A stretch of DNA of 64,000 nt from a phage. A program made the position numbers and the translations under genes. Below are positions 2,937 through 62,698 of the stretch, piece after piece; the stretch's first letter is position 1, and every line of letters begins with the position of its first letter. The stretch is from sequence record PZ256263.1; one strand, given 5' to 3'. Below the pieces are notes generated by a model. It saw nothing but the letters and a program-made list of their open reading frames with translations, made no database searches and had not been told where the DNA came from.

Positions 2937-3107
2937 AAGGTGATTGTATACCTTACTCCCTTTTAGCTCATTGTGATGCGTTATAGGCCGCTTGTTATCG
3001 CTTTACAAGCCTTTTCCTATGATGTATCACGTTCGCCCGCTCTTTTACCTTCCCATAGTGAAAAAGTTTAAAATATTTTGTTTTACCCTATTGCATCCCT
3101 CACTGAT

Positions 3108-3116
3108 TAATGTATA
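3108..3116 (+). promoter_or_regulatory. TAATGTATA motif (candidate promoter for the phage sigma factor)
   Basis: Exact TAATGTATA; the same motif recurs upstream of several genes. No ORF lies immediately downstream, so function here is uncertain. Confidence 0.3.
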
Positions 3117-3216
3117 CTTCATTTCATCGGGTACGATGTAAAACATACAAGGCAAGGAAACTTGCCCCGCTCTTTAAAAATCAGGCTAGAAAGTGAAAAT
3201 ATTCTTAAAAAGAGTA

Positions 3217-3245
3217 TTGACACCGAAAACAGCCTGATATATAGT
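3217..3245 (+). promoter_or_regulatory. Strong host sigma70-like promoter (TTGACA, 17 nt, TATAGT)
   Basis: Consensus -35 at 3217-3222, 17-nt spacer, -10 TATAGT at 3240-3245; AT-rich UP-like sequence upstream. Confidence 0.65.
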
Positions 3246-3848
3246 GAGCATAGTCAGCGATGACTTAAAAAATCCCGCTCTTTAAAAATATGATTTGTCT
3301 TACGGGTGGCGGCGACGTCATTACTATAAGGCGCTCAGTTAATCGGTAGAATTGATTCCTGATTCATACGTGACGCAGGCGGACAATAAGCAATATCAAT
3401 AAGCCTTATTTGTTCGATACTTTCAAAAGATTAATGCTTGAAAGCGCACTAGATTCCCTGAAAGACAAATCAGACTTATCATCTTGCCCTTTCGCATAGA
3501 TTCACGCGAGATAAGGGAAAGGAATTAAAAGAAGATGATAAAAAGAGTTGCAAACGTGGTTAAAGTAGTCCATACTAACCACAAGTTAGCAAAACATCGC
3601 TAACTAGTTCCCAAATCAACGTATCGCGGGAAAGGTGGCACATAGTGCAGCGATTAGTTCAGGTGTAGGCGGCCTGTTAATGAATCAGTAAGCCTTCAAT
3701 GTGACAGTGATTAGCAGACACTTTAAAAGGCTAAACGCTCTTTAACAATATGAATCATAAGTTAAGCCTCACCGCTTAATCTTCAATCAAATAAAGCTGA
3801 TTGATATATCCTCCCAATAGTGGGAACGACGAAAAAGATTAAAAAGCG

Positions 3849-3877
3849 GTTGACAGCGAAAACAACATGATTCATAA
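3849..3877 (+). promoter_or_regulatory. Strong host sigma70-like promoter (TTGACA, 17 nt, CATAAT)
   Basis: Consensus -35 at 3849-3854, 17-nt spacer, -10 CATAAT at 3872-3877; flanks resemble the promoter at 3217. Confidence 0.65.
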
Positions 3878-4801
3878 TGAGCACTCACTAAGCAAATCAT
3901 CGCTTCAGTGAAAAGCGTAACAACGGCTAACAGTTGCATAGTGTGAGAAAGCACACTGATAGATTTACCGCTCTTTAATAATTTAAACATTCTCCTATAT
4001 CGGTTGAATATGTTAGATGATAATAACCATCGGATAACATACCAGATAAAACGGCGTAAAACTCCCTAAATTATCAGGGTAAACAGTTTTACATTCCCTT
4101 ACTGGAAACGTCACCACTGATAAACAGATTCATCGAGTACACGCAAAGACTTAAGCTAATCGCCCACGGTTAAGGGTAGCGGCGGTCATCGCTAACATGG
4201 TGCTACGGTGAAAGAAGTTAATCAGGGTAGGCAATCCCGACGAATTAACGCTCAATTGAGAGCGGCGGGGAGTGGTTAAAAAGTGGCAAATTGCTATTTA
4301 ACAATAAGGTTTAGTGTGAACGTTTACGATGTGAACGGCTTGAGATTCATCTTATGATGAAAGTACATAGTCGGTTTATGTAGTAAACTTGCCGAAAGAT
4401 ATAAAACGTCGGAACATTAGACGGTCAATGACTCTTTCGCAATAGTATCCCGTAGTGGGCGATGACTAGCGATTGAGAGTTGATATAAAAGGATAGGCGA
4501 GAGCGAAAGCAAAGTAAACGATATTGCCGACGGTTACAATAACGTAACTAATTAGAGTCGGACGCACTGCCTTATTGTGATGATTGATCATCGCTATCAG
4601 GTCGGCTTCGTTTATAGCGACTAATTAAAGATACCAGATGAAACATCACGGATAAGGGGGCGGCAAGGTTAACTCCTGATAAGACCGCCCCACTTACCTA
4701 TAACTACTGAATAGTTAGCGGTTATAGTTAAGTTAATAGCGACTTAAACAAGCTCATAGAGAGCGGGGCAATAGCGCCCTTATAATTGAAAGGTGAATAT
4801 C

Positions 4802-5701
4802 ATGGCTAAAATCTTTAATCTGGTAAAAGAATCTGGTTTTAACGCACTGGCTAACAACATTCGTAGCAATAATGCGGCGATCAAACAAGATGTTTCTAAC
4901 TTCCTGTTAGGGCACTTGCAGCACTTCCGCAGTAACGGTAAAAAGCTGGACGTATTGCAGACGGCTGTTGACTTCCTGTTAACTGAACGTTTTCGTGATA
5001 TGGATGTTATCGCTACCGCAATTACTTTCTTAACTCCTATCAAGTTTAACACCGATGCGGCAAATGGTCGTAAAAAGTGGATTAATCTGGAAGGTGAGGC
5101 GAAAGCTAAAGAAGACGCGAAAGAAGCACAAATTAAGGCCAAAATGGAACAAAACCGCGCTCGCTGGTCAAACGCTTTCGAAAACTTCGCGTTAGGTCGT
5201 GAAATTGAAGTCGATAATCCTAACTTCTTCAAAGGTTGCAATGACAACGTAGCGGCACACCTGCAAATTCCGGCAAAGAATAAAGAAGACTTTAACCAAG
5301 ATATTTACGCTTTGGTTGAACGCTTGAATGCAATCCGTATTGAAGCCAAATTACTGGCTGATGAGCGCAACGGCGCAACTAGTGATAACACTATTGCCCT
5401 GAGCGAAGAGGTAGGAAAGGTTAAGAAATCTTTTGATTCACTCATCAAGAAAGTCACGGCCTCAACGGTAGCGATCTCTGATGACTACCTGATGAACGCA
5501 TCAAGCAAGGAATTGGAATCTCTCGATTCATACGCTGATGAAATGGAAAAGACTGTTGCAGCTATGCAGGAGAAGTTAGAAAGTCTGCGCGGTCGTATCT
5601 CTTCAACGGTTGCTACCCGTACCGAACAAGCGGCGAAAGCAGAAGAAGAAGAAGTATTGCGCAAAGCGGCTGAAATTATGGCAGCACGTCAGGCTGCATA
5701 A
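4802..5701 (+). CDS. Hypothetical early protein (299 aa), predicted helical/coiled-coil
   Basis: ATG at 4802 with AAAGGTGA RBS 6 nt upstream; followed by a strong terminator, suggesting a discrete highly expressed early unit. Confidence 0.7.
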   Translation: MAKIFNLVKESGFNALANNIRSNNAAIKQDVSNFLLGHLQHFRSNGKKLDVLQTAVDFLLTERFRDMDVIATAITFLTPIKFNTDAANGRKKWINLEGEAKAKEDAKEAQIKAKMEQNRARWSNAFENFALGREIEVDNPNFFKGCNDNVAAHLQIPAKNKEDFNQDIYALVERLNAIRIEAKLLADERNGATSDNTIALSEEVGKVKKSFDSLIKKVTASTVAISDDYLMNASSKELESLDSYADEMEKTVAAMQEKLESLRGRISSTVATRTEQAAKAEEEEVLRKAAEIMAARQAA

Positions 5702-5723
5702 GTAAGACAATTCAAATAAACAT

Positions 5724-5759
5724 AAGGCGCTATCTTAACGGGTAGCGCCTTTTCTTTTA
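5724..5759 (+). terminator. Rho-independent terminator
   Basis: Perfect 9-bp stem AAGGCGCTA / TAGCGCCTT followed by a T-run. Confidence 0.7.
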
Positions 5760-5812
5760 TCAGTGCATTGATTCAGTGCATTAATCAAAGAATCTAATCA
5801 AAGGTGATGATC

Positions 5813-6031
5813 ATGTTAATTACGCATACCACGATTTATCGGAATCTTGTCAACGGTCAACATTACCGCCTATCTAAAAAGTATGGCGTTGAATGTAAAT
5901 GTGTTATTACCGGTGAATGGTATCCGTCGCCAATGAAGATTGAAGCATTGGAACGTGAAGCGATCAGCTATATTATCACGCAAGAAACAACGTTAGGCCG
6001 TATCTTAAGAAAGTTGGGATTGAGAAAATGA
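5813..6031 (+). CDS. Hypothetical protein (72 aa)
   Basis: ATG at 5813 with AAGGTGA 5 nt upstream; tandem 13-bp direct repeat just upstream. Confidence 0.5.
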   Translation: MLITHTTIYRNLVNGQHYRLSKKYGVECKCVITGEWYPSPMKIEALEREAISYIITQETTLGRILRKLGLRK

Positions 6032-6252
6032 TATTCAGTAGCAATTTTGGCAAGTGTCCTATTTGTGAGAAACATCGCAGCACGGGAAACCATCGCAAAT
6101 GTAGTAAGATATTACAGCGCCAACGTGATAACAATCATTGGGAAACTGTACACACTAATCAGCGTAAAGAAGAAGTTAGAAAAATGGCTGTTAAAGCGTC
6201 ATTTGCTCAATCCACCCGTATTGAACACATTCAAAGGTATCAAGCATCATGA
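6028..6252 (+). CDS. Hypothetical Cys/His-containing protein (74 aa)
   Basis: ATGA start/stop overlap with the upstream gene; CPICEKH motif; preferred over the overlapping other-frame ORF 6047-6259. Confidence 0.45.
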   Translation: MIFSSNFGKCPICEKHRSTGNHRKCSKILQRQRDNNHWETVHTNQRKEEVRKMAVKASFAQSTRIEHIQRYQAS

Positions 6253-6971: not shown

Positions 6972-7051
6972 TAGGAATATAGCCCCCTCTTTTAGTACTA
7001 TGACGCTCTTTCTGTCGCGTCGTGCCCTCTCCCCATTTGAAGCTTCCGCAT

Positions 7052-7074
7052 AGCCGCCTTTGAGCGGCTTTTTG
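7052..7074 (+). terminator. Rho-independent terminator-like hairpin
   Basis: GCCGC / GCGGC stem followed by TTTTT. Confidence 0.55.
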
Positions 7075-7136
7075 CGTTGCTGTAAGTGCATTTGCGAGTG
7101 TATTTATAGCAACGGTCATGTGTTGCTTTCAGGTTT

Positions 7137-7163
7137 GCCCCGGCTACGGCTGGGGCTTTTTTA
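7137..7163 (+). terminator. Rho-independent terminator
   Basis: GCCCCGGC-tacg-GCTGGGGC stem (one G-U pair) followed by TTTTTTAT. Confidence 0.6.
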
Positions 7164-7211
7164 TGCCCGTAAAACAGGAGGTAGCAAGTTCTGATAACAA
7201 CGGCCCAGCTA

Positions 7212-7601
7212 ATGTTGACATTGACTATTTATTATGAGGCAGGGAATCAGCCAACCGCATGTAAAGCTATGGTTGCGGATACCGTGATAAATAGAATGGC
7301 CCAACGAAAACTGACCGCTGAACAGGTGATAAGACAAAAGAACCAGTTTGAGTGGATTCCGGTACTATTAAAACAGGAGAAACCTTATAAACGTTATGTA
7401 AAGCTGATTCGTGATAAAAATCCGATGACTAAGAAGGCCATTGGAGAAAGCGAGCGGCTGGCTAAACGTGCCCTTAAGAAGAATTATGTTCCGCTGTACA
7501 GTGGGACTTACTTTCAGAGTAAGAGCGAAGGGGTGCCAAAATGGTATGCCAATCCTATGTATTGTGGTGATTTAGTGTTCGATAATAGCTCTAGGGAATA
7601 A
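7212..7601 (+). CDS. SleB/CwlJ-like cell-wall hydrolase domain protein (129 aa)
   Basis: YYEAGNQ...VADTVINRM...VIRQKNQFEWIP...PKWYANP resembles the Hydrolase_2 (SleB/CwlJ) pattern by eye; start codon uncertain. Confidence 0.5.
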   Translation: MLTLTIYYEAGNQPTACKAMVADTVINRMAQRKLTAEQVIRQKNQFEWIPVLLKQEKPYKRYVKLIRDKNPMTKKAIGESERLAKRALKKNYVPLYSGTYFQSKSEGVPKWYANPMYCGDLVFDNSSRE

Positions 7602-7800
7602 TCACTAGTGCCAGATTTGACAAACTAAATTCCTTTATAAACCAACCACTTAGTAAATTTATTGAAAAAGATGGTAGTATTCTGGGACTATGGGTAATGC
7701 TCTGTATATAGACCCTTTGAAAATTTCTTAGAAAATAAGTTTACTAAATATAACTTACTTAAATAATATTACTTTTAATCTCTGATAAAGGGTAAACAAT

Positions 7801-8097
7801 ATGACTTTAGAAGTATATAAATTCCTTTTTGTAAGCTGTTTAACTATCAGCGTTCTAGGGTTTATTATTCTCAGAAACAAAGCAGCAAGCTGGGAGAGAA
7901 TGTACAAATCTCTAGTCCGAGTGGATGAGATGTATAATGAGAAAGTTAAAGCAACTCTTAACGATCTTATTATGCAAGTTGAGGACAGAAACAAGCGTCT
8001 TCAGAATCTCAACCATGAAGTATTACGCCTTGCTCGTGCTAATGAAGATTTGCGAGTAGCCATTGCTAAACAGCAGGAGATTAACAGTGAAGCATGA
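7801..8097 (+). CDS. Hypothetical membrane-anchored coiled-coil protein (98 aa)
   Basis: N-terminal hydrophobic segment then a heptad-like charged region. Confidence 0.5.
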   Translation: MTLEVYKFLFVSCLTISVLGFIILRNKAASWERMYKSLVRVDEMYNEKVKATLNDLIMQVEDRNKRLQNLNHEVLRLARANEDLRVAIAKQQEINSEA

Positions 8098-10997: not shown

Positions 10998-11073
10998 GCG
11001 CTCTTAGCTCAATGGATAGAGCAGTAGCCTTCTAAGCTATTGGTTACAGGTTCGAGTCCTGTAGGGCGCACCA
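10998..11073 (+). tRNA. tRNA-Arg (anticodon UCU), 76 nt including CCA
   Basis: Hand-folded cloverleaf: acceptor GCGCTCT/AGGGCGC, D-arm GCTC-AATGGAT-AGAGC, anticodon loop CTTCTAA, T-arm ACAGG-TTCGAGT-CCTGT, discriminator A then CCA. Confidence 0.85.
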
Positions 11074-41223: not shown

Positions 41224-41692
41224 AGAACCTGTAGTTTATAAAGACTCTATCAGAGATCAATATAATGAGATGTTAAAGAAACAAGCTGATTCTAATCTTC
41301 GTTATCAGAGGATAGTAGAACAATCTAACTTTAAAGGTTTACTTGAATGGTAACTTATATCCTTTACTTCTTAGCTTTCTTAGGAATAGTCTTTTTATCT
41401 ATTATTCTTGAATTTGGTTTAAGTAAGTTAGTTAATTATTTAGGTAGTAAGTAATTAATATTCTTTTAAATAGAGAATCAAAGTCCCTAGGAGTCCCCAC
41501 AACCTAAATCAAGGATTCCTTAATTCTCTATTTTTATCTCGCAGGTGGCTCCTGCCCTTCGGTACTTGCAAGGGATTCTATGAATTGCCCAATGTACAAG
41601 CCTGCAAGAGTTATTCTCTAACTCTACCTTATATACATTACCGTTAGTGAGTATCTACTACCAATAAAATGATACTTATCTTACAAAAGTTA

Positions 41693-61958: not shown

Positions 61959-62450
61959 TTAATATTTACCTTCGGTGTAAAGATTAGCTTCTGCAACTCT
62001 TCTATTATGAAGACCCTGACTTCTCTGCTTCTCTCCCTTGACCGTTATTTTATCCCAACGAAGAAATTCGGAATAAACATCCCCCTTAACATCTCCATTG
62101 ATTACCTTCCTTAACTTAGATGTGCTCAAAGCCCCACTGCCAACATTGAAGTTGAAAGAAGTGAGTGCATCAAACTCATGAACTAGTAAAGGAACCTTTA
62201 TGTTCTTCTGAGTAGCACGAACAGAGTCTTGTGTGTCTCTATCTAGCAGAGCTAGACAATCCTCTATAGAATACGTTAATCCTTGTCTAACCGGATAACC
62301 ATTCATATCGCGCGTAGCCCCTACACATATAGTCCAGATACCTGCGGAATCTTTATAAGCCTTTGTTCTCATACCCTCATGCTTCATGATGAATTCCATT
62401 CCAGCTGGGCTTAAGTTTAGTTGTACAGGTGGCAATGCGACGTTATCCAT
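61959..62450 (-). CDS. Endolysin, GH24 (T4-type) lysozyme (163 aa)
   Basis: FIMKHEGMRTKAYKDSAGIWTICVGAT catalytic E-D-T region and GLHNRRVAEANLY motif. Confidence 0.85.
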   Translation of the reverse strand: MDNVALPPVQLNLSPAGMEFIMKHEGMRTKAYKDSAGIWTICVGATRDMNGYPVRQGLTYSIEDCLALLDRDTQDSVRATQKNIKVPLLVHEFDALTSFNFNVGSGALSTSKLRKVINGDVKGDVYSEFLRWDKITVKGEKQRSQGLHNRRVAEANLYTEGKY

Positions 62451-62479: not shown

Positions 62480-62698
62480 TTAAGGTAGTATCTTTCTCAG
62501 AGCGTTAGATTCAGCATCAGGGCAAATAACAACTAAGTTATTTTGAATTGTTCTCTGCTTGCATTGAGAGCTAAGCTTCTCTACTGGAGCAGGGACAGTT
62601 ACTAATGGATGAACTGCGCCTACAGGAACTGCGGTGGATACCACAACACCTGCGCCTAAACATATTAAACCATATGCAGCTTGTTTCATCATTTTCAT
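62480..62698 (-). CDS. Small membrane/secreted protein next to the endolysin (possible holin or lysis accessory), 72 aa
   Basis: Basic N-terminus, one hydrophobic helix AAYGLICLGAGVVVSTAVPVGAV; GGAG RBS. Confidence 0.35.
   Translation of the reverse strand: MKMMKQAAYGLICLGAGVVVSTAVPVGAVHPLVTVPAPVEKLSSQCKQRTIQNNLVVICPDAESNALRKILP

Follow-up and report, generated by a model that had tools for sequence, protein, structure and literature searches.

A conserved SleB/CwlJ-type hydrolase gene in the early arm of a phiEco32-like coliphage, with a probable CTG start and a possible role as a minor second endolysin

We found that the open reading frame at 7212-7601 of a phiEco32-like coliphage encodes a conserved homologue of the SleB/CwlJ-type (Hydrolase_2) cell wall hydrolases, and that its true start is probably a CTG codon 21 nt upstream of the ATG first reported. 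The DNA analyzed, which we refer to as the window, is a stretch of 64,000 nucleotides (sequence record PZ256263.1). Our best explanation, to which we give about an even chance, is that the gene product is an ancestral endolysin that has been kept as a minor second, holin-dependent muralytic enzyme beside the late lysozyme. The domain call is not new. It is already public for phage Paul and, in UniProt, for phage SU10, and homology to the 7-11 'endolysin' has already been tabulated (PMC8948821). The contributions made here are refinements: the probable CTG start, the conserved layout of terminator, Shine-Dalgarno sequence and CTG, purifying selection measured on the gene, and a connection to the endolysin of 7-11-type phages.

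Orthologues, family membership and predicted fold

The window is from a phiEco32-like (Kuravirus) coliphage. Roughly the first 46 kb, on the + strand, consist of early and middle genes, and the remainder, on the - strand, of structural and late genes. The gene and its putative catalytic codon are located as follows.

7212-7601, + strand: hydrolase ORF as first reported; ATG start, 129 amino acids plus stop; orthologue of phiEco32 gp117 with a Hydrolase_2 (SleB/CwlJ-type) domain
7236-7238, + strand: GAG codon for the putative catalytic glutamate (E9 of the 129-aa form, E16 of the 136-aa form)

A region of ~3 kb around the ORF matched ~100 phage records with 80-99% DNA identity. Nearly all of these are phiEco32-like prolate podophages of E. 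coli (Gordonclarkvirinae: Kuravirus, Suseptimavirus, Nieuwekanaalvirus). Orthologues with at least 80% identity were present in 99 phage records. Orthology to phiEco32 gp117 (phi32_117) is indicated by 98-99% protein identity and by a shared syntenic slot between gp120-like and gp116-like genes. The two phages differ in that phiEco32 has the 798-nt gp119 gene just upstream of the hydrolase and the window does not. The gp117 product is labeled hypothetical in phiEco32 and in most other records. In the curated record of phage Paul, gp123 is called 'cell wall hydrolase' with PF07486 cited, and the SU10 orthologue (UniProt A0A0B4N207) is called 'Cell wall hydrolase SleB domain-containing protein'. 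Several further phage records use 'cell wall hydrolase' or 'hydrolase'. A supplementary table from the Severinov laboratory lists SaPh711_gp111 and GAP52 gp023 as homologues of phi32_117 (PMC8948821).

The 129-aa form matched the Pfam family Hydrolase_2 (PF07486) with 33.5 bits (E = 6.6e-8), above the curated gathering threshold of 27 bits, and the 136-aa form scored 33.3 bits. The alignment places residues 13-114 of the protein on model positions 2-85 of 100, stopping short of the model end. Because the match starts at residue 13, the putative catalytic glutamate (E9) falls outside the part covered by the model. Among the PHROGs, the gene has a family of its own (phrog_12974) and a weak match to the endolysin family phrog_938 (E = 9e-8). 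No relevant family was found in NCBIfam with the hydrolase protein, and a single-sequence phmmer search of the PDB gave no relevant match. A narrow profile made from 14 close sequences did not match SleB in the PDB. When run exhaustively with HMMER, this profile yielded 90 relatives at E ≤0.001, mostly stand-alone proteins of 120-150 aa. From these relatives we drew an alignment of 34 sequences that includes homologues down to ~25% identity. The profile from this broader alignment found the SleB catalytic domains 4F55 (E = 1.9e-17) and 4FET (E = 7.2e-17) in the PDB. By these profile matches, the ORF is a real and conserved homologue of the SleB/CwlJ-type cell wall hydrolases, as the preliminary description of this DNA had proposed.

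Only two residues, E9 and R28, are invariant in the 34-sequence alignment, and V21, Q45 and F46 are nearly so. E9 is also invariant among the 14 close sequences. It aligned with the first glutamate of the YGESRGEP motif of SleB (chain position 26 in 4F55 and 120 in 4FET), and the hydrolase has the Y-x-E-(A/S) motif at the end of helix 1. Judging by the construct numbering, we take the aligned SleB residue to be the published catalytic glutamate, Glu157 in Bacillus cereus and Glu151 in Bacillus anthracis. The catalytic glutamate of SleB is essential for its lytic transglycosylase activity and is shared with CwlJ (PMC12331253). The C-terminal G-x-H-x-F(Y) motif, whose histidine is present in SleB and most other members of the 34-sequence alignment, is missing; the window and the whole Kuravirus-related clade have C-G-D-L-V-F.

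An AlphaFold model made with a shallow alignment was unusable (pLDDT 52). The AF2 model made with the 34-sequence alignment had a pLDDT of 93.4 and a pTM of 0.87, and the protein has a helical insertion around residues 48-90. A Foldseek search of BFVD with this model found the SU10 orthologue (TM 0.97) and dozens of predicted phage SleB-type hydrolases (TM 0.55-0.76, probability 1.00), including the 'endolysin' of Erwinia phage Y2. The best Foldseek match in the PDB had an E value of only 1.7. We took this blank to reflect either a search failure or the helical insertion rather than a lack of homology, and gave it little weight beside the profile match to SleB.

We found no export signal in the 136-aa form by simple hydropathy; that is, no 19-residue Kyte-Doolittle window reached 1.6. 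An N-terminal SAR or signal-anchor sequence was ruled out, as just 15 residues precede the charged glutamate and no window exceeded the hydropathy threshold.

Translation start and purifying selection

Several lines of evidence indicate that translation probably begins upstream of the ATG at 7212.

7191-7601, + strand: probable full coding sequence; 136 amino acids, non-canonical CTG start
7176-7182, + strand: Shine-Dalgarno sequence AGGAGGT, 9 nt upstream of CTG 7191 and 30 nt upstream of ATG 7212

The reading frame is open from 7185. There is no ATG, GTG or TTG within range of the Shine-Dalgarno sequence in any frame, and neither ATG 7212 nor the codon for Met29 has a Shine-Dalgarno sequence of its own. 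Phage records differ in the start that is annotated, and four kinds of product are found, with 136, 129, 128 and 101 aa. The records of Bas86 and Bas87 have the start equivalent to CTG 7191. Those of ECBP2, KBNP1711, EP335 and MLP3 have the 101-aa form, which starts at Met29 and removes the catalytic residue. The lineage of ECBP2, Bas87 and EP335 has CTT at the codon corresponding to 7212, and so the ATG is absent there.

We compared this region to that of five syntenic relatives with 58-73% identity. Their start codon, at the position homologous to CTG 7191, is TTG in four and ATG in one; AGGAGGT is directly upstream of it, and the products are 135-136 aa. Among Kuravirus-like sequences, the Shine-Dalgarno sequence is kept as AGGAGGT or AGGGGGT in 12 of 12. 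The CTG is invariant in all 12 of the phages that have it, as is the peptide L-I-T-T-A-Q-L. Codons 2-7 of the extension have only three variable sites in these 12 phages, all at third positions and all synonymous. The non-coding stretch just upstream of the CTG is variable at 12 of 28 bases, although a 1-nt indel accounts for part of this count. Based on the spacing from the Shine-Dalgarno sequence, the homology to the TTG and ATG starts of relatives, the invariant CTG, and the synonymous-only changes in the extension, we conclude that the true start is probably CTG 7191, giving a protein of 136 aa. Initiation at ATA 7194 instead appears less likely. In E. coli reporters, initiation at CUG is ~1-2% of that at AUG (bioRxiv 10.1101/063800), and protein output from the hydrolase gene is therefore predicted to be low.

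A small upstream ORF (7163-7237, equivalent to phiEco32 gp118) was considered as a gene or coupling partner and rejected, since EP335 no longer has its ATG and an indel disrupts its frame in the ECBP2 group.

By codon-level comparison, the hydrolase gene is under purifying selection. With Nei-Gojobori counts for 14 sequences, pN/pS for the whole gene was 0.21, and comparison of the window to ECBP2 gave an omega of 0.086 at a dS of 0.87. The segment upstream of Met29 is the most constrained in the gene (pN/pS 0.17), with 3, 0 and 10 variable sites at first, second and third codon positions. Because the strongest constraint is upstream of Met29, the 101-aa product is ruled out as the functional form.

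Transcription context and companion lysis genes

The hydrolase gene is in the arm that is transcribed by sigma70 and constitutes the early class in phiEco32 and SU10 (PMC4281155, PMC8948821). The spacer that heads the early operon (3091-3878) has three promoter-like sites, and two hairpins resembling intrinsic terminators are just ahead of the hydrolase.

3091-3118, + strand: sigma70-type promoter-like site, TTGCAT-16-TG-TATACT
3217-3245, + strand: sigma70-type promoter-like site, TTGACA-17-TATAGT
3850-3878, + strand: sigma70-type promoter-like site, TTGACA-17-CATAAT
7052-7077, + strand: intrinsic-terminator-like hairpin 1, 6-bp GC-rich stem and T-run
7137-7162, + strand: intrinsic-terminator-like hairpin 2, 8-bp stem with 7 GC pairs, then TTTTTT; ends 28 nt before CTG 7191

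The promoter-like sites agree with the three sigma70 promoters described in the spacer ahead of the early genes of SU10, in which early genes are CDS 69-125. The rows on either side in the homology table place the SU10 hydrolase orthologue at CDS 116. Synteny with the sigma70 early arm of phiEco32 and SU10, together with the sites at ~3091, 3217 and 3850, thus upholds the placement of the gene in the early region that had been made previously. That the hydrolase is expressed early is what this position would suggest.

There are three terminator-like hairpins between the sigma70-type promoters and the hydrolase, at 5724, 7052 and 7137. Hairpin 2 is annotated as a terminator in phage Paul. Tandem terminators are at the same place in two relatives (L089 and L091), and one terminator precedes 7-11 gp111; none was found ahead of the GAP52 homologue. 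We found no separate promoter between hairpin 2 and the start, where the gap is only 28 nt. A middle or late promoter for the phage sigma factor (gp36) was also considered and rejected. The sole exact TAATGTATA motif upstream, at 3108, overlaps a sigma70-type promoter and lacks conservation in phiEco32. Together, the terminators and the CTG start predict weak, read-through-dependent expression of the hydrolase.

The genes with which the hydrolase might act are as follows.

61959-62450, - strand: late T4-type lysozyme (GH24), the canonical endolysin; PF00959 Phage_lysozyme, E = 3.6e-32
62480-62698, - strand: putative holin adjoining the lysozyme; phrog_11161 holin, E = 3e-49, one hydrophobic segment
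55276-56058, - strand: virion-module protein with an SLT lytic transglycosylase domain; PF01464, E = 1.2e-23
7801-8097, + strand: conserved downstream neighbour; 98 amino acids, N-terminal transmembrane segment and coiled coil, 'DNA helicase' in databases

The hydrolase is not in the lysis cassette. [quoted passage not shown] The hydrolase had been described as a third peptidoglycan-active gene, distant from the late lysozyme and from the virion SLT protein, and the domain matches (PF00959 and PF01464) confirm both companions. The downstream neighbour has the same architecture, a transmembrane segment and a coiled coil, in the relatives L089, L091 and L093. Considering 7801-8097 as an i-spanin with an embedded o-spanin, we found no embedded or adjacent ORF with a lipobox.

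Related phages provide a comparison. The 7-11 gp111, GAP52_091 and Privateer endolysins are, like the window protein, single-domain Hydrolase_2 proteins; they are ~140 aa and 31-35% identical to it. Gp111 of 7-11 and GAP52_091 (141 aa) match PF07486 with 61.7 bits, compared to ~33 for the window protein, and are annotated as endolysins. As in the window, genes for the 7-11-type homologues are separate from the structural genes, being located in the non-structural arm, and the 7-11 gene is directly behind a terminator. In contrast to the window protein, with its CTG start and lost C-terminal motif, these homologues have an ATG start and retain the C-terminal G-x-H-x-F motif. The phiEco32-type holin and lysozyme genes were 'not found in 7-11 and GAP52' (PMC4281155), and the only endolysin identified in Privateer is its GAP52-type protein, encoded ~12 kb from the spanins (PMC7881722). 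That is, the Hydrolase_2 protein is the sole identified endolysin in 7-11-type phages, whereas the window has a holin-lysozyme pair as well.

There are similar arrangements in other coliphages. Phapecoctavirus coliphages (iGC_PHA_EC001) are reported to have a GH24 lysozyme and a separate Hydrolase_2 protein, and the SleB-like proteins CB7_83 and CR3_087 of Vequintavirinae have a signal peptide and are implicated in lysis; CB7_83 is toxic on expression. Both groups resemble the window in having a second Hydrolase_2 protein outside of the classic lysis cassette. Their proteins are longer and have a signal peptide, whereas no export signal was found in the Kuravirus protein. It is thus a known pattern for a Hydrolase_2 gene to stand alone, apart from a lysis cassette. 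With homologues outside the structural module in 7-11, GAP52 and Privateer, and pairs of GH24 and Hydrolase_2 proteins in other coliphages, the earlier view that a third muralytic gene is unexpected was overstated.

The window protein has the domain family and the Y-x-E-(A/S), N-R and Q-F motifs in common with SleB (4F55, 4FET) and CwlJ. It differs from SleB in lacking the N-terminal peptidoglycan-binding domain, the signal peptide and the C-terminal histidine, and in having the helical insertion. The substrate of SleB is the muramic-delta-lactam cortex, which is absent from E. coli. CwlJ, like the window protein, is a stand-alone catalytic domain (PMC12331253). In the E. coli periplasm, the type VI secretion effector T6EC3, which is SleB-like, is toxic only while its glutamate is intact (PMC11148199). 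Unlike a phage lysis enzyme, T6EC3 is a toxin that is delivered and is paired with a cognate immunity protein. It shows that a SleB fold is able to attack Gram-negative murein, and such activity of the window protein is therefore plausible.

Possible roles of the hydrolase

Our best explanation is that the hydrolase serves as a minor auxiliary endolysin. The Hydrolase_2 gene may have been the ancestral endolysin of the wider group, with the phiEco32 lineage, in which early transcription is shut off, later gaining the late holin-lysozyme pair. The sigma70 early operon transcript would reach the hydrolase only by read-through of the two intrinsic terminators. Inefficient translation from CUG, with a strong Shine-Dalgarno sequence, would then give the 136-aa protein. 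Because it has no export signal, the protein should stay in the cytoplasm, building up harmlessly, until the late holin opens the membrane. Once the membrane is permeabilized, the hydrolase would reach the murein and cut glycan strands alongside the lysozyme. It would do so as a small single-domain, CwlJ-like glycan-strand cleaver; its SleB relatives are lytic transglycosylases that use one catalytic glutamate. We infer, as parts of this explanation, that the protein has enzymatic activity, is expressed at a low level, depends on the holin, and contributes to lysis.

Analysis of SU10 particles bears on several of the possible roles. By mass spectrometry of a PEG-concentrated preparation, the hydrolase orthologue was absent from the 34 proteins detected (PMC4281155). 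The 34 proteins did include an internal virion protein, an injection protein, and several early and middle proteins (PMC4281155). The non-detection fits with low abundance and argues against packaging in the virion; it provides no positive sign that the protein is made.

Several considerations count against a role as an auxiliary endolysin. The C-terminal histidine motif is lost, the Pfam match ends at model position 85 of 100, and the Foldseek search of the PDB gave nothing significant. There are 54 kb between the hydrolase and the holin and lysozyme genes. In phiEco32, gp79 shuts off sigma70-dependent early transcription, so the hydrolase would have to persist until lysis. There is no shut-off of sigma70 in 7-11, where early transcripts last throughout infection, and an endolysin in the early arm is therefore unproblematic there. 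Lastly, the glycosidic bond in question is already a target of the GH24 lysozyme, so what a second enzyme would add is unexplained, which leaves some room for an early or conditional role.

One such role, which we consider unlikely, is an early function apart from lysis, in which small amounts of the muralytic enzyme, made soon after infection, would target the envelope, or else murein precursors or recycling intermediates in the cytoplasm. Such a function might serve host takeover or superinfection exclusion, or might involve cooperation with the membrane/coiled-coil neighbour encoded at 7801-8097. An early function would fit the location of the gene within a sigma70 early operon, the strong purifying selection on a gene that exists alongside a canonical late lysis pair, and expression signals that look deliberately throttled. 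It is also consistent with the bitopic membrane protein that always adjoins the hydrolase in all Gordonclarkvirinae-like relatives. However, this neighbour is absent beside the 7-11 and GAP52 hydrolase genes, and the 7-11-type homologue is treated as a lysis enzyme. Without a signal peptide or transmembrane segment, it is not evident how the protein would get to the periplasm ahead of holin triggering. In addition, we know of no cytoplasmic substrate that has the MurNAc-GlcNAc bond in polymer form, which also counts against an early function. We also think it improbable that the hydrolase is an ancestral endolysin, deliberately throttled by tandem terminators and a conserved CUG start but maintained by strong purifying selection, that does what the lysozyme cannot. 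It would then have either an early low-dose function in the envelope or in murein turnover, possibly together with the membrane/coiled-coil neighbour, or a function as a backup lysin in hosts or growth states with murein that resists GH24 lysozyme.

The hydrolase might instead be a decaying relic of the ancestral endolysin, redundant after gain of the holin and lysozyme and effectively silent, with its canonical start lost and its gene left behind terminators. The presence of CTG, and not TTG or ATG, at the ancestral start position could be read this way, as could the loss of the C-terminal histidine motif, a Pfam score just over the threshold, the lack of detection of the SU10 orthologue by mass spectrometry, and one truncated or frameshifted variant (P0015, 113 aa, in a 76-kb contig). 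We judge a relic to be quite unlikely. Purifying selection argues against decay: pN/pS is 0.21, with dS up to ~0.9, across three genera, and the orthologue is present in 99 records. The catalytic glutamate, the Shine-Dalgarno sequence and the CTG are all invariant, and the extension codons change only synonymously. The terminators also precede the 7-11 homologue and relatives with canonical starts, and so are not a sign of decay.

The preliminary description had suggested entry-related remodelling or a non-catalytic binding module, and neither fared well. A virion-associated lysin that acts at entry is very unlikely. Wall-degrading enzymes are common in phage particles and the hydrolase is small and basic, but action at entry would need packaging, and the gene is not part of the structural module, which is on the other strand. 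An SLT-domain protein is already present in the virion, and the SU10 orthologue was missing from the particle preparation in which internal virion and injection proteins were detected. Furthermore, an early gene of the incoming genome cannot help that genome's own entry. We regard as highly improbable that the protein is a non-catalytic peptidoglycan-binding module, or that the true product is the 101-aa form that starts at Met29 and lacks the glutamate: four records annotate that form, ATG 7212 has no Shine-Dalgarno sequence and the histidine motif is lost, but there is no Shine-Dalgarno sequence before Met29 either, the glutamate is invariant in the 34 homologues, the segment that contains it is under the strongest purifying selection in the gene, which argues against a non-catalytic module, and the BFVD model of the 101-aa form from EP335 fails to superpose on the full fold (TM 0.29).

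Because public annotation already includes the domain call, little is at stake there. Placing the start at CTG, in the ancestral position, would repair the annotation and would add a naturally occurring case of a phage gene with conserved CUG initiation. The hydrolase, a stand-alone SleB-type enzyme of 15 kDa with possible activity on E. coli murein, could have minor interest as an enzybiotic scaffold. The gene also bears on the evolution of lysis systems, as it connects those of two related groups of phages. The 7-11-type phages appear to use a Hydrolase_2 enzyme as endolysin, and the phiEco32-type phages would have added the late pair and kept the old enzyme. If so, the hydrolase would be a tractable case for learning why phages keep redundant lysins.

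Genes flanking the hydrolase gene

We found that the start of the hydrolase gene is overlapped by a small ORF equivalent to gp118 of phiEco32 (phi32_118).

7163-7237, + strand: small ORF, phi32_118 equivalent

This ORF is probably spurious as a gene (its ATG lies within the terminator T-tract and is missing in EP335), and in the ECBP2 group it is cut to 10 codons by a 1-nt indel. phiEco32 has an extra gene, gp119, with the gp120-like gene on one side and the hydrolase gene on the other.

phiEco32 7040-7837: gp119, 798-nt gene labelled 'tail protein'

gp119 is absent from the window (compared over 6972-7190), from Paul and KBNP1711, and from the ECBP2 group. The gene resembles a moron-type element inserted within the terminator region.

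On the other side of the hydrolase gene, a membrane protein gene is always found ~200 nt downstream, both in Kuravirus-type phages and in relatives that are 58-73% identical.

7801-8097, + strand: 98-aa protein, N-terminal transmembrane segment and long coiled coil
Counterparts in contigs of syntenic relatives: L089 4620-4904; L091 4539-4811; L093 4636-4944

No counterpart of this gene adjoins the Hydrolase_2 homologues of 7-11 or GAP52. The database label 'DNA helicase' (including phrog_12154) cannot be right for a product with this transmembrane and coiled-coil architecture. In its layout the protein resembles an i-spanin or a class III holin/antiholin, but no lipoprotein partner was found.

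Candidate promoters, tRNA and a sister lineage

We found five matches to the gp36 (phage sigma) promoter element TAATGTATA, which are candidate middle and late promoters.

34676 (+), 41693 (+), 41632 (-) and 51525 (-): exact matches
62711 (-): match with 1 mismatch, just upstream of the holin gene

The matches at 41632 (-) and 41693 (+) are divergently oriented and separated by 60 nt. Rfam gave a single hit in the window, its sole tRNA gene, which corresponds to the tRNA-Arg of the phiEco32 and Paul annotations.

10998-11070, + strand: tRNA gene

Five Logan metagenome contigs (L089, L091, L093, L099 and L100) represent a sister lineage of Gordonclarkvirinae-like phages. They share a syntenic block of gp124-like, gp120-like, hydrolase and gp116-like genes, and downstream of this block they have genes for TerB and KilA-N domains, both of which the window lacks.

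Holin and spanin candidates

The 'holin' of the window has one long hydrophobic stretch (approximately residues 6-36) and, after it, a tail that is rich in Pro and contains Cys.

62480-62698, - strand: 'holin', 72 aa, phrog_11161

No spanin genes were evident adjoining the holin-lysozyme pair of the window. In GAP52, a spanin candidate is located two genes downstream of the Hydrolase_2 'endolysin'.

GAP52 5621-6169: GAP52_089

GAP52_089 had no match in PHROG. Its product carries a lipoprotein signal (…FLLGC); the middle part is rich in Pro and Ser, and a weakly hydrophobic stretch precedes the basic C-terminus. These features resemble those of a unimolecular spanin. If GAP52_089 is indeed a unimolecular spanin, then the Hydrolase_2 region of GAP52 would be a lysis cassette.
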